Source: an uncultured Planctomycetaceae bacterium (GTDB lineage Bacteria; Planctomycetota; Planctomycetia; Planctomycetales; Planctomycetaceae). From it: a stretch of DNA of 64,000 nucleotides. This document shows positions 10,457-44,024 of this stretch, in pieces (position 1 is the first letter of the stretch; every line of letters starts with the position of its first letter). The notes beneath the pieces are model-generated. The model was not told the DNA's origin, ran no database searches, and saw only the letters and a program-made list of their open reading frames with translations. Made by a program: the position numbers and the translations under genes. The stretch is from NCBI GenBank assembly GCA_963813715.1, contig CAWFAK010000017.1, positions 544,001 through 608,000 on the forward strand, in the 5' to 3' direction.

Positions 10457-10473
10457 TGCAAAACACGTTCCGG
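10457..10473 (-). promoter_or_regulatory. Putative sigma54 promoter for yciF-DUF6496
   Basis: CCGGAACGTGTTTTGCA: GG-N10-GC with TTGCA. Confidence 0.6.
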
Positions 10474-10733
10474 CCGCATCGATTCGCCCGCCGCGACGCT
10501 TGCCCGTCACCTCCCCGGGTGGGGTTGGCGACGGTCAATCGTCTTCCAGATGGGATTCGATCGCGGACGTGCGCGGTCCGCCTGAAACCCCTTCGGAGTC
10601 CAGTCCGCGATGCGTGCCGGGGCACCGGTCAAAGCGTTCTCGACAGGCTGCATTGGGGGGTTTACGATTAAGCCGAGTGCCGCAAGAAATTGCGGGCACA
10701 GGCTTTTGGCCGGAGTAGCGGGACAATCTGCTT

Positions 10734-12294
10734 ATGCTGATGACGCGCCGGTATCCTGCCTGGGGGTACCTGATCGCAATTCTCGGGTCGGCGCTTGTCT
10801 TCGCGATGCGCTACAGCACCGACACCCCCCTGCGCGGATTCTTCACGTCGCTCGCCTTTCTGCTGGTCGTGTTGCTGGCCGGCCTGATCGGTGGTTGGAA
10901 ACCGTCGATCCTGACGACCCTCATTTGTCTGGCAAACGAGCGGTTTTTCTTCACCAACCCCAAGCACTCGTTCACGCTCCCCTCCGGCAGCGACACGATG
11001 CGGATGATGGTTTACGGCCTTAGCGGCTTAGCCGTCGGCTTGCTGTGCGAAGGATTGCAACGGGCCTGGGGGCGGGTTGCCGAGCGTCAACGCCAGCTCG
11101 AACGCGAGATGAGCGAGCGGCTGGCCGTGGCGCAGGAGCGGCTCTACCTGGTCGAGCAATTACGCGAGGCCGATCGTCGCAAAGACTTGTTCCTGGCGAC
11201 GTTAGCCCACGAGCTGCGCAATCCGTTGGCTCCGCTGAGCAACGCGTTGGAAGTTTGGGGCATGGTGCAGGAAAACCCGGAGCAGCTGCAAGAGCTCCGC
11301 GCGATGATGCAGCGTCAAATTCGGCAGATGACCCGGTTGATCGACGATCTGCTCGACGTTTCGCGGATCAGCCGCGGGAAAATCTCGCTCCGGGCCAACC
11401 AGGTTGAGATTGGCACCCTTGTGCGCACCGCCGTCGAATCCGTGCAGCCGGTGATCACCGCGCACAAGCAGCGCCTGGAGGTCGCGCTTCCGGAGGAACC
11501 GGTCTACGTCAACGCCGACGCGACACGCGTCTCGCAGGTGATCGGCAACGTGCTGCACAACGCGGCCAAGTACACGCCGGAAGGGGGCCAAATCGCGATC
11601 GGTGTGAAGAGGGATAACGATCGCGTGGTGGTTTCGGTTCGCGATACGGGCTGCGGCATTCCGGCCGAGAAGCTGACGAGTATCTTCGAGATGTTCGAGC
11701 AAGTCGATCAGACCCTCGACCGTTCACAGGGAGGCTTGGGAATCGGCCTGACGTTGGCCAAACGCTTGATCGAAATGAGCGGGGGCTCGATCGAGGCGCG
11801 GAGCGCTGGTCTGGGACAGGGAAGCGAGTTCGTCATCATGCTGCCGGCCGGCCCCGGAGACGAGCGCGCAGTTCGAGCCCTCCCTGAACGCTGTGCCCGC
11901 CGAGTTGCCCCGGCGGCGGATTCTGGTGGTCGACGACATGTACGATTCGGGGACGACGCTCGCGCGCATCCTCCGCGCCATTGGACAGGAGGTGACGATT
12001 GCCCACGACGGTCCAACGGCGCTCGAGCGGGTCCGCGACGTAAAGCCCGAAGTCGTGTTCCTGGATGTCGCCATGCCTCGCATGAACGGATATGAAGTCG
12101 CGCGACGCATCCGCGCGCTCGACGGCGTGGAAACTCCCGTGCTGATTGCGCTGACGGGCTACGGCACGGACGAAGATCGCCGCCGGTCTCGCGAAGCGGG
12201 GATCGATTTTCATCTGACGAAGCCGACCTCGCTCGAGCAGCTGACGGCGGTTTTGTCGCAGGCGAGCGGGGCGCTGGCGACGGGACGGGCGTGA
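10734..12294 (+). CDS. Hybrid sensor histidine kinase/receiver with DUF4118-like membrane N-terminus (frameshift near 11880)
   Basis: LAHELRNPL H-box, NAAKYT, DTGCGI, GLGIGL; receiver ILVVDD...LDVAMP...KP in the next frame. Confidence 0.9.
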
Positions 12295-12337
12295 ATTGGC
12301 GCGGAGATGGTGAGCGGTCCGCGCGCGGGTTCGAACA

Positions 12338-12382
12338 CCCCGCTCACCCCTGCCCTCTCCCCATCGGAATGGGGCGAGGGTG
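12338..12382. repeat. REP-like palindrome (CTCACCCC...CCCTCTCCC...GGG.GAGGG); second copy at 54265-54307
   Basis: Hairpin between convergent genes; a similar element occurs in reverse orientation at 54265. Confidence 0.6.
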
Positions 12383-12420
12383 GTCGCAGCGGACGACGAT
12401 CGGCGAGAGAGACGCCATCG

Positions 12421-13711
12421 CTAGGCGCTCGCCGTGCGGCGGGCTTTATCGGAAATGTCTTTGCGACACCAGGCGCCCTCCCAGCGGATGCACTTCACCG
12501 CCTGGTAGGCGCGGAGCTTGGCGTCGGCAATCGTGTCGCCGACCGCCGTCACTCCCAGCACCCGGCCGCCGTCGGTGACGACCTGGTCGCCCAGGCGCGT
12601 CGTGCCCGCGTGGAAGACCTTGACGTCGGGCACGCGACCGGCTTCCGCCAGCCCGCGGATCGGGAACCCCTTTTTGAACTCTCCGGGATAACCGTTCGAC
12701 GCCATCACCACGCAGACCGCGGGCGCGGGTCCCACTCGAGCGGCGGCAGCTTTTTGAGCCGTCCCTCGGCCGCGGCCAACAGCACCTGGGCGAGGTCCGA
12801 CTTCAATCGCATCAAAACGGGTTGCGCCTCGGGGTCGCCGAAGCGGACGTTGAACTCGAGCACTTTGGGGCCTTGCGAGGTGATCATTAGCCCAGCGTAC
12901 AAAATGCCCTGGAACGGCTCGTCCTCGCGACGCATCGTATGGACGATGGGCACAAGCACTTTTTCGATGACGTCGTCGAGCAGGGTCGGCGTGACCAGCG
13001 GAGTCGGCGAATAGGCCCCCATCCCGCCCGTATTGGGCCCTTGGTCGTCGTCGTAAGCGGCCTTGTGATCCTGCGCGGGCTCGAGCGGCAGGATGGTGTT
13101 GCCGTCGACGATGGCCAAAATGCTCGCTTCTTCGCCGACGAGAGCTTCTTCGATCACGATTCGCTTGCCCGCGTCGCCGAATGCCAGGTCGACCATCGCG
13201 TGACGAATGGCGGCGAGCGCGTCCTGCCGATTCGGGCAGACGATCACCCCCTTGCCCGCGGCCAAGCCGTCCGCTTTGACCACGAGCGGCCGTTCGCTGC
13301 GTTCGTCGACGTGGGCGGCCGCCGCGACGGGATCGTCGAAGACGGCGTAGTCGGCCGTCGGCACGTTCGCCAGGCGCATGATTTCCTTAGCGTGCGACTT
13401 GCTCGCCTCGAGGACCGAGGCGGCCTTGGTCGGACCGAAGACGGGCACGTTGGCGACCTGGAAGGCGTCGACCATTCCCTGCACCAGCGGCGCCTCGGGG
13501 CCAATCACGGCCAGGTCGATTTGTTCGGCCTTGCAGAACTTGAGCAGGCGGGCCGTGTCGGTGGCCCGAATGTCGAGATTTTCGGTATTCGGTTCGTCGG
13601 CCGTGCCGGCGTTTCCCGCGCGCAGTAGATCCGCGTCACTGTGGGAGACTGCGCCAGCTTGTAGACCAGCGCGTGTTCCCGGCCTCCATTGCCCACCACC
13701 AAGATTTTCAT
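12421..13711 (-). CDS. purD: Phosphoribosylamine-glycine ligase (frameshifts near 13620 and 12725)
   Basis: [51 protein letters not shown]. Confidence 0.95.
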
Positions 13712-43100: not shown

Positions 43101-43316
43101 GCGCGGCGAGCGACGAAGCGCGGTGAGATGTTCTCCTCCCCCAACGATTTTCCCGCTCCGTTCACGGGACGTGCGACTGAGGCGTCGCCTTTCGACCTTT
43201 CAGCCGAGGTCGGGCGACGATCAGATCGGTCGCCTCGCCCTCAAAAAGGAACTGTCCTACGCGGCTTTCCTCGGGATTCCGGCGCACCTGGACATCGTTT
43301 TATCGCTCTCCCTTCG

Positions 43317-43332
43317 CGGCATGCCCGTTGCA
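43317..43332 (+). promoter_or_regulatory. sigma54 promoter for csbD
   Basis: CGGCATGCCCGTTGCA. Confidence 0.7.
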
Positions 43333-43445
43333 CTGCTTATATGGTGTGGAAAAAAAGTGACCGGCCTCGACGCACAGGATGAGCAGGGTGTTGGACTCCG
43401 CTCGCGAGACCGTCAAGACGGCAGGAAGCTCCGAGGAGAAAGACG

Positions 43446-43862
43446 ATGAACTGGGACACTGTGAAGGGCGACTGGAAGCAATTCAAAGGCAAGGTCAAGG
43501 AGCAGTGGGGCAAGCTCACGGACGATGACTTGAACCGCATCGAGGGCAAGCGCGAGCAGCTGGCCGGTGCGATCGAGAAGCGCTACGGCATCGAAAAGGA
43601 CGAGGCCGACCGCCAAGTCACCGCGTTCGAGAAGCAATGTGGCGAATGCGATGAAGATCAAAATCGCATGGCGGGCGAGTCGCCAAGTCGGCAGCCGCAC
43701 GAAAAACACATGGCCGGCACGAAACCGATGCACAATCCGCAGCAGGCCGGCAACAGCGGCCAGCGCATGGCGGACAAGGACATGTCTGGAGAACAACACG
43801 AGGAAAGCAAACGTGGAACTAGCGGCCAGAAGCAGCGTTCGCAGCCGCATGGCAACAAGTAA
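43446..43862 (+). CDS. CsbD family stress protein with hydrophilic tail
   Basis: MNWDTVKGDWKQFKGKVKEQWGKLTDDDL. Confidence 0.92.
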   Translation: MNWDTVKGDWKQFKGKVKEQWGKLTDDDLNRIEGKREQLAGAIEKRYGIEKDEADRQVTAFEKQCGECDEDQNRMAGESPSRQPHEKHMAGTKPMHNPQQAGNSGQRMADKDMSGEQHEESKRGTSGQKQRSQPHGNK

Positions 43863-44008
43863 ACCGCGCGGCGAGTGATCGCCGGAGCATGCACGACGAA
43901 GCCCGTGGCCGACGATTCGGCCGCGGGCTTTTTGTTCGCGCCGCTCCGTAATGATCAACGCACGGACGGGGATGACGCAGTGGAAAAAGCAGCCACTGGG
44001 ACAGAGCG

Positions 44009-44024
44009 CGGTACAGACTTTGCA
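44009..44024 (+). promoter_or_regulatory. Putative sigma54 promoter
   Basis: CGGTACAGACTTTGCA, about 60 bp upstream of the ATG at 44085. Confidence 0.55.

Follow-up and report, generated by a model that had tools for sequence, protein, structure and literature searches.

We analyzed a 64,000-nucleotide stretch of DNA from an uncultured Planctomycetaceae bacterium (G000:C17:544001-608000, hereafter the window; G000 is its 7.49-Mb genome, 82.6% complete), in which nine candidate sigma-54 promoters precede genes such as csbD, yciF, and ligD. In our judgment, it is quite probable that stress gene families stand here under conserved sigma-54 promoters and are transcribed by RpoN, with a core of them switched by one conserved NtrC-type activator through a tandem enhancer. 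Since sigma-54-type promoters are found before survival genes in this bacterium and in many of its relatives, their stress program likely runs through an ATP-driven activator and not through a dedicated stress sigma factor.

Sigma-54-type promoters in the window and across the genome

The nine GG-N10-GC motifs from which a sequence-only reading of the window had proposed a sigma-54 regulon were all present at the places and on the strands claimed, with two shifted by one base (26869-26885 and 43316-43332), and each lies upstream of a gene on the same strand, 41 to 126 nt from its start codon. The window contains many loose GG-N8-TTGC patterns. Because loose patterns of this kind are just mildly enriched genome-wide, we scored sites with a weight matrix; it is approximate and was built from the general sigma-54 consensus, not fitted to G000. 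Genes (6,628) were called with a hexamer script in an assembly that contains frameshifts, and their starts are approximate. With this matrix, 46 sense-strand upstream regions of G000 carried an N10 site scoring at least 14, compared to 8.4 in shuffled sequence, 19 on the antisense strand, and 14, 13, 7, 12, and 12 with spacers of 8, 9, 11, 12, and 13 bp, respectively. The nine window sites scored 10.6 to 19.0, and those at 36552 and 36297 rank first and second among 5,392 upstream regions genome-wide. In the window, 15 sites on either strand reached 10, including all nine of the original motifs, which also account for eight of the nine sites reaching 12. The accompanying remark that no such sites were noticed before the housekeeping genes agrees with this scoring, in which just one of 16 such window genes reaches 10 (pfkA, 10.1, with the site inside accC).

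The motif was also recovered without being specified. Unseeded expectation maximization (EM) on 56 csbD and yciF upstream regions from genomes other than G000 returned tcGGcAcgncgnTTGC with a log likelihood (LL) of 230, against 66 for shuffled input. A strict sigma-54 pattern was found in 34 of 59 csbD/yciF upstream regions compared to 1.7 after shuffling, and, read along the coding strand, the sites fit YTGGCAC-N5-TTGC, GG and GC being exactly 10 bp apart. Across 49 aligned sites, from −72 to +35, only the −24 and −12 boxes were conserved, the sites having been picked by the matrix. The integration host factor consensus was not clearly enriched in the same 59 regions (8 versus 4.8 shuffled). 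The expectation that the motifs would be conserved in related genomes was borne out: window sites persist in most orthologues, for example, in 11/11 for the first csbD gene (csbD1) and 8/11 for DUF3309, although a few rows of this comparison are paralogues or come from other genera. Four neighboring housekeeping genes had no site in 21 orthologue rows (0/6, 0/6, 0/4, and 0/5). Altogether, enrichment, rigid spacing, conservation, and unseeded rediscovery support the assignment of the nine window motifs as putative sigma-54-type promoters. The factor that would read them is encoded in the genome, where one match to RpoN exceeds the TIGR02395 cutoff.

Contigs of eight of 20 listed runs, soil and rhizosphere metatranscriptomes containing the window stretch (RNA runs only), provide a weak hint that transcripts begin where sigma-54 promoters would place them. 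Among the pieces listed, to which all counts of ends given here refer, 13 of 18 tallied contig ends, spread over five promoters, fall between +14 and +19 counted from the predicted +1, though contigs cannot map starts. Ends were at +14, +15, +19, +34, and +47 for csbD1; +15, +15, +18, and +18 (four runs) for DUF3309; +19 and +19 (adapter-ended, two runs of one study) for the second csbD gene (csbD2); +17 and +17 (two studies) for the PDZ protein gene; +15, +18, +82, and +90 for the open reading frame (ORF) at 34523; and +58 for the gene at 41150. Several of the ends at +14 to +19 have adapter attached, and RNA 5′ ends in such libraries lose 10 to 20 nt. Measured against the start expected if TTGCA were instead a −35 box, the contig ends lie 2 to 7 nt upstream of that start (end/start, 36592/36599, 36272/36266 on the minus strand, 43361/43363, 44051/44055, and 34453/34459).

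Association with stress gene families

Sigma-54 sites are concentrated before general stress gene families, and both G000 and its relatives support this. Families were chosen with hidden Markov models, blind to the motif. In G000, 11 of 19 genes picked in this way have a site scoring at least 10, compared to 218 of 5,444 genes overall (4.0%), and outside the window the count is still 7 of 15. By family, sites precede CsbD (4/4), YciF (1/1), DUF1328 (2/3), Ku (1/1), LigD (1/1), PRC (1/1), and BON (1/8) genes. Other high-scoring sites in G000 precede an alpha-amylase/debranching enzyme pair, a GH15 trehalase-like enzyme, UDG, YgaP, and DUF5670, as well as DksA/TraR, AKR, SDR, and DUF1614 genes; the Pfam labels come from 61 proteins selected from 155 in the loci examined. 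Strong sites are also found at G000:C17:869280, G000:C7:889728, and G000:C5:1199712, before genes that we take, from the look of their sequences, to be dnaK-, Hsp20-, and glnA-like.

In relatives, we counted sites scoring at least 10 within 300 nt upstream. The csbD set (30 loci of 68 matches, including two G000 loci and one duplicate) had sites at 21 of 30 loci, and the class-wide yciF set (30 loci of 82 matches, nine families) at 18 of 30, with 0 to 2 for other spacers in either set and 0.6 for shuffled yciF sequence. For DUF1328 (30 loci of 68 matches), the count was 10 of 30, comprising 5/6 inside the class Planctomycetia and 5/24 outside it. True ligD had a site at 7 of 22 loci class-wide after exclusion of eight loci of a short stand-alone domain. 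As controls, recA (30 loci of 40 matches) had a site at one of 30 loci, and shuffled sequence gave about 0.4 to 0.9.

The excluded domain, which is LigD phosphoesterase-like (G000:C5:1199178-1199456; L239-L246), is present in most of 151 class genomes, separate from true ligD. G000 also contains a second stress island (G000:C4:18000-32000, locus L127) with DUF5670, two ferritins, CsbD, a DUF3309-like protein, CsrA, MpsC, and a band-7 protein, whose genes are mostly without strong sigma-54 sites of their own.

A candidate tandem enhancer

A candidate enhancer was first spotted as a block conserved across csbD2 orthologues. It consists of two TG(G/A)TCG-N5-CGA(C/T)CA palindromes 20 bp apart. EM on 39 promoters beside activators of the clade described below, none from G000, recovered the palindrome (LL of 135 versus 25 shuffled), as did EM on the combined csbD and yciF set (82 versus 27). 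A second copy stood at exactly 20 bp in 20 cases, compared to at most 5 at any other offset, and among held-out csbD relatives the tandem at 20 bp was found in 13 of 19, compared to 2 to 5 at other offsets. In G000, the tandem enhancer accompanies 9 of 94 promoters scoring at least 12 and 26 of 4,963 weak ones, and the tandem model alone, unlike the single palindrome, separated top promoters from background.

The best match in the window (18.0) is a pair of 17-bp palindromes at 36388-36426, common to the divergent DUF3309 and csbD1 promoters; it is a conserved block in nine aligned orthologous regions, with single-site scores of at least 9 in 8/11 and 9/11 orthologues. The second best (11.6), a candidate at 43206-43244, precedes the csbD2 promoter. 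In G000 the element is common to csbD1, DUF3309-ferritin, csbD2, a BON-activator operon, DUF4142, and DUF1614, and the strongest match in the genome is the activator's own locus. At the remaining window promoters, a scan did not find the tandem upstream of yciF (10457), and alignment, used here without EM, revealed no second enhancer for the 41150, PDZ, and 34523/ligD promoters. In a test on named loci, which omitted L281 (training DNA), the tandem enhancer was found at 15 of 37 promoters beside activators of the DDDR type and 2 of 28 beside non-planctomycete ones; it was also found at 3 of 16 beside other planctomycete activators, all three with a GITRG helix. Going by this co-occurrence, the activator may bind the tandem enhancer.

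Four strong tandem matches in G000 (C5:626752, C15:9472, C5:621000, and C5:169230; scores of 17 to 20) have no sigma-54 site near them. Repression, sigma-70 targets, or missed promoters are possible explanations.

A candidate activator and its kinases

G000 has 35 matches to PF00158, of which about 20 have a full activator domain. The sequence-only reading placed the activator outside the window, and beyond it we found a candidate, a REC-AAA+-helix-turn-helix (HTH) protein at G000:C9:492573-494117. At this locus, DUF4142 is divergent from a BON-activator-PDZ operon with a sigma-54 site scoring 18.0. By Pfam, its domains are REC, AAA+, and Fis HTH; the best NCBIfam matches are NtrC, AtoC, and ZraR, all below the family cutoffs. 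Among six aligned G000 paralogues, this protein alone carries the helix GITRGSLRNK. The activator was matched in 39 of 61 class genomes at an E value of ≤1e-130, and a quick tree of 44 rows placed it in a clade of 21 (Shimodaira-Hasegawa approximate likelihood ratio test support of 99) spanning families f1, f3, f4, f6, and f10. At 13 of 16 clade loci, the neighbors within about 5 kb include genes for DUF1328, CsbD, DUF2383, Dps, BON, or PRC proteins (a subset checked with Pfam), and two relatives (G005 and G008) have a copy no more than 7 kb from csbD. We regard the protein at G000:C9:492573 as the likely activator for a core of stress promoters, judging by its clade, its neighbors, and the enhancer. 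Among cultured strains, Kolteria novifilia Pan216 (locus L281) carries the module as well.

Clade loci mostly also contain large hybrid kinases (eight checked with Pfam), with DUF4118, ETR1-like, or PAS input and HisKA-HATPase-REC domains, often with Hpt. The closest kinases in G000 include C5:1063646 and C5:1243114. In the window, a DUF4118-HisKA-HATPase kinase at 10734-12095 (plus strand) is divergent from yciF and 30 to 36% like kinases beside a relative's activator, which makes it a candidate sensor.

From these parts we infer binding, activation, kinase partners, and an inducing stress, as follows. RpoN holoenzyme would wait at −24/−12 promoters as a closed complex. Hybrid sensor kinases would phosphorylate the receiver of the activator, which would then oligomerize on an enhancer 70 to 150 bp upstream, hydrolyze ATP, and open the complex. 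The enhancer before its own BON-activator-PDZ operon would provide positive feedback. In the window, this arrangement would cover csbD1, DUF3309-ferritin, and csbD2. For a second tier without the enhancer, made up of yciF, ligD, PDZ, 41150, 34523, 26985, and, probably, genes of the treZ/GH15 type, the arrangement would call for other activators, degenerate sites, or an activator working from solution. That stress induces these genes is a guess by analogy with the roles of the families in other bacteria, and desiccation is guessed from the cargo.

Weighing the proposal against its alternatives

Several observations weigh against the proposal. Six of the nine window promoters are without the tandem enhancer, and one activator for all nine is therefore not established. 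Among held-out yciF relatives, just 1 of 17 had the tandem and 16 did not, and in the named-loci test the control offsets of 17 or 23 bp gave 10/37 for DDDR-type, 2/16 for other planctomycete, and 0/28 for non-planctomycete activators. Taken singly and matched exactly, the palindrome G(A/G)TCG-N5-CGA(C/T)C was rejected as a general feature (3 of 95 top promoters versus 10 of 1,498). The best matches to the activator in f5 and in f4-g42 fall outside the clade, though f5 yciF genes keep sigma-54 sites. In G000 and in all six genus copies, the activator loop reads GSFTSA, not GAFTGA, so that its activity is not assured; in most clade members, the loop is GAFTGA or GSFTGA. There is no kinase gene beside the activator in G000. 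Among the RNA data, 5 of the 18 tallied ends are farther in, between +34 and +90, and in runs X1, X2, and X8 contigs extend through promoters. The BON family, held out as a test, was largely unsuccessful (1/8, compared to 2/3 for DUF1328), Mn-catalase was not found in G000 by family search, and Ku was not enriched phylum-wide (4 of 30 loci, mostly in other classes) and was dropped as a phylum-wide marker of the regulon. A site upstream of brkB/yihY (window, 41700-42045) was present in six of eight relatives and absent in G000 (best score, 1.3), either a real loss or an assembly error, as RNA contigs show indels there. Finally, related genomes are not independent, so the counts in relatives overstate significance.

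It is unlikely, in our view, that the promoters, while real, are a shared class serving several unrelated activators for separate signals, making up many small regulons with survival-type cargo and no single stress response. Such an arrangement would fit the roughly 20 genes of activator type that G000 contains, some of which have sigma-54 promoters close by, as well as the lack of the enhancer at most of the window promoters and the presence among top sites of genes we take to be glnA-, dnaK-, and Hsp20-like. A class-wide sigma-54 prediction likewise covers chaperones, Usp, and MscS (PMC12316311). However, one enhancer joins csbD1, DUF3309-ferritin, csbD2, BON, DUF4142, and DUF1614 in G000, and the activator clade adjoins stress genes across five families.

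We consider it distinctly improbable that another sigma factor is the stress master, with RpoN serving a growth-phase, developmental, or nutrient program instead of acute stress. The main rival for that role is a group-2 sigma factor of RpoS size at G000:C17:901834-902646, after rpsA; group-2 sigma factors of 280 to 340 amino acids are widespread in the 41 class genomes searched. An extracytoplasmic function (ECF) factor is another candidate. G000 has 46 sigma-70 region-2 matches in all, and its sigma factors include two full-length RpoD-like ones (C16:415049 and C15:119291) and FliA. In Rhodopirellula, ECF factors were stress induced while rpoN was unchanged or down (PMC2754498). Of the dedicated stress sigma factors, RpoS had no match above the TIGR02394 cutoff in 41 class genomes; in G000, nothing exceeded the TIGR02980 cutoff for SigB/F/G, the best match being FliA, and no NepR was found in this 82.6% complete genome. 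Against another master, in the 59 csbD/yciF upstream regions, in which the sigma-54 pattern occurs 34 times versus 1.7, the EcfG motif GGAAC-N16-CGTT (2 versus 3.8 shuffled), the SigB motif GTTT-N15-17-GGGWAW (1 versus 1.7), and the RpoS −10 motif CTAyACT (8 versus 21.8) were not enriched; the first was taken from PMC7083833, and the other two are general consensus forms. The aligned sites show no further conserved element around them. RpoN activity is governed by activators and not by the level of rpoN mRNA. A cascade from RpoN to RpoS, like that of Borrelia, was considered and rejected, with the second RpoD and the group-2 sigma factor lacking an upstream sigma-54 site (3.3 and 2.5).

That the motif is mere chance, a sigma-70 TTGCA −35 box, or an ordinary transcription factor site has a very slim probability, for while high G+C content makes GG and GC common, loose patterns are frequent, and the matrix was written from a general consensus, the motif keeps strictly to N10 and to the sense strand, is conserved, and was rediscovered by unseeded EM, and the RNA ends lie upstream of where a TTGCA promoter would start.

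Returning to a sigma-54-run stress regulon, what the sequence-only reading proposed stands with respect to the promoters, the presence of rpoN, and the concentration before stress families, and falls short with respect to induction by stress or desiccation and to one activator for the whole set, the enhancer being found at three of nine window promoters. A wider formulation has, we believe, about an even chance of being right: Planctomycetia, without RpoS, SigB, and EcfG, may possess a fourth general stress response, in which RpoN acts with a dedicated, self-amplifying activator of one class-wide family (helix GITRGxLRxK) that reads tandem TGRTCG-N5-CGAYCA and is served by many hybrid kinases, and this sigma-54 wiring of csbD-type genes may recur in other soil phyla.

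The nine promoters and their surroundings

The gene labels originally attached to the promoters were largely confirmed by Pfam, which identified DUF892 (YciF), DUF6496, LigD, ferritin, DUF3309, two CsbD proteins, and PDZ; the label DUF883 found no support in Pfam or NCBIfam. Pfam also identified holin-X/YqjE, AI-2E, and BrkB/YihY in the window. On the minus strand, the site at 10457-10473 (score of 14.0; predicted +1 at 10446) precedes yciF (9840-10352; PF05974), followed by DUF6496 (9546-9722, minus strand; PF20106). The site at 26869-26885 (plus strand; 16.3; +1 at 26896), kept in 2/2 orthologues, is followed by an ORF of 62 amino acids with a signal peptide (26985-27173, plus strand) that matched no family. 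Back to back with it lies a sigma-54-like site at 26813-26829 (minus strand; 13.8) with no called gene behind it, where a small RNA or missed ORF may lie downstream.

A weaker site at 34328-34344 (minus strand; 10.6; +1 at 34317), reaching 10 in seven of nine genus orthologues, precedes ligD (31594-34286, minus strand), which is present in frameshifted pieces with phosphoesterase, ligase, and polymerase domains by Pfam. Divergent from it, the site at 34412-34428 (plus strand; 13.6; +1 at 34439), kept in 6/6 orthologues, precedes an ORF of 74 amino acids (34523-34747, plus strand). This had been described as a His-repeat protein; a short HFVDGHL-like repeat is indeed present, but neither Pfam nor NCBIfam assigned a family.

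The two highest-scoring sites are also divergent. That at 36297-36313 (minus strand; 18.9; +1 at 36286; 8/11 orthologues) precedes DUF3309 (36018-36170), ferritin (35286-35837), and then a secreted protein, all on the minus strand. That at 36552-36568 (plus strand; 19.0; +1 at 36579; 11/11 orthologues) precedes the csbD1 operon, also on the plus strand, with csbD (36668-37087), small membrane or helical ORFs, a YqjE-like gene (38285-38752), and an AI-2E gene (39160-41049). A frameshifted small gene, its DUF883 label unconfirmed, lies between csbD1 and the next ORF (37085-37650), with an extra base at 37109 in all eight RNA runs. Since RNA contigs differ from the window by small indels at 33035, 33476, 37109, and 37377, the window frameshifts at these positions, the first two of which break ligD, are likely assembly errors.

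The site at 41648-41664 (minus strand; 14.8), for which no enhancer was found, is kept in 8/8 orthologues and precedes a membrane protein of 140 amino acids (41150-41572, minus strand). The site at 43316-43332 (plus strand; 12.0; +1 at 43343) is kept in six of seven orthologue rows, one a paralogue match, and precedes csbD2 (43446-43862, plus strand). The last site, at 44008-44024 (plus strand; 13.2; +1 at 44035), is kept in five of six orthologues and precedes the PDZ protein gene (44085-45971, plus strand); by alignment, this promoter sits 3′ of a conserved terminator-like hairpin. Elsewhere in the window, an allophanate hydrolase-Bmp-type solute-binding fusion is encoded by an ORF of 1,004 amino acids at 21426-24440 (minus strand), with a site scoring 10.6 upstream.

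Comparison with known systems

In the standard account, general stress responses belong to the dedicated sigma factors RpoS, SigB, and EcfG. The regulons of RpoS and SigB carry CsbD/YjbJ, YciF/YciE, YqjE-like proteins, Dps/ferritin, BON proteins, and enzymes of glycogen and trehalose metabolism. The same kinds of cargo are found here as under RpoS in Gammaproteobacteria and SigB in Bacillota, with labels here from Pfam. The difference is that no RpoS (41 genomes) or SigB (G000) exceeded its cutoff here, and their motifs were not enriched. NtrB/NtrC, AtoS/AtoC, and ZraS/ZraR share with the present system a REC-AAA+-Fis HTH activator, a tandem palindromic enhancer, a −24/−12 promoter, and predicted autoregulation. 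By contrast, the activator described here falls below named-family cutoffs, has a GSFTSA or GSFTGA loop in part of its clade, and is adjoined by Hpt hybrid kinases, and the targets are survival genes where those of NtrC-type systems concern nitrogen or carbon catabolism. Studholme and Dixon reportedly remarked on planctomycete sigma-54 as early as 2004.

The closest overlap in cargo is with EcfG/PhyR/NepR, with csbD and ku-ligD being direct targets of EcfG in Sphingopyxis granuli (PMC7083833); a phosphorelay trigger would be a further likeness, one that here is presumed. The difference is that GGAAC-N16-CGTT and an ECF sigma factor operate there, in place of GG-N10-GC, a tandem enhancer, and no NepR found here. 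For planctomycetes themselves, Wecker 2009 raised rpoN control, through one proposed promoter (RB10378), as a possibility for the general stress genes of Rhodopirellula (PMC2754498), and Carrera-Reyna 2025 predicted that Usp, MscS, and chaperones in Planctomycetia are under sigma-54, with csbD unnamed (PMC12316311). In their accessible text, neither names a csbD/yciF/DUF1328/ligD sigma-54 regulon, an activator, or an enhancer, although further tables of the latter may list these families. RpoN2 of Ralstonia solanacearum is similar in having many hypothetical proteins as targets, with no clear phenotype (PMC4371752); it differs in being a second rpoN copy and, in the available part of that report, in having no link to general stress, while G000 has one rpoN match. 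No description of a general stress regulon run by RpoN was found in the literature searched, with subscription papers outside its reach.

The system bears on how large soil phyla without RpoS, SigB, and EcfG survive starvation and drying. It provides named parts in Planctomycetia, namely, promoters with predicted starts, a candidate activator, an enhancer sequence, and candidate kinases, and the promoters offer a route by which small unknown planctomycete genes may be assigned to stress survival. Compared with the systems above, it is likely a new variant on both the general stress regulon and the NtrC-type regulon, pairing conserved sigma-54 stress promoters with an activator and an enhancer that likely serve the core.

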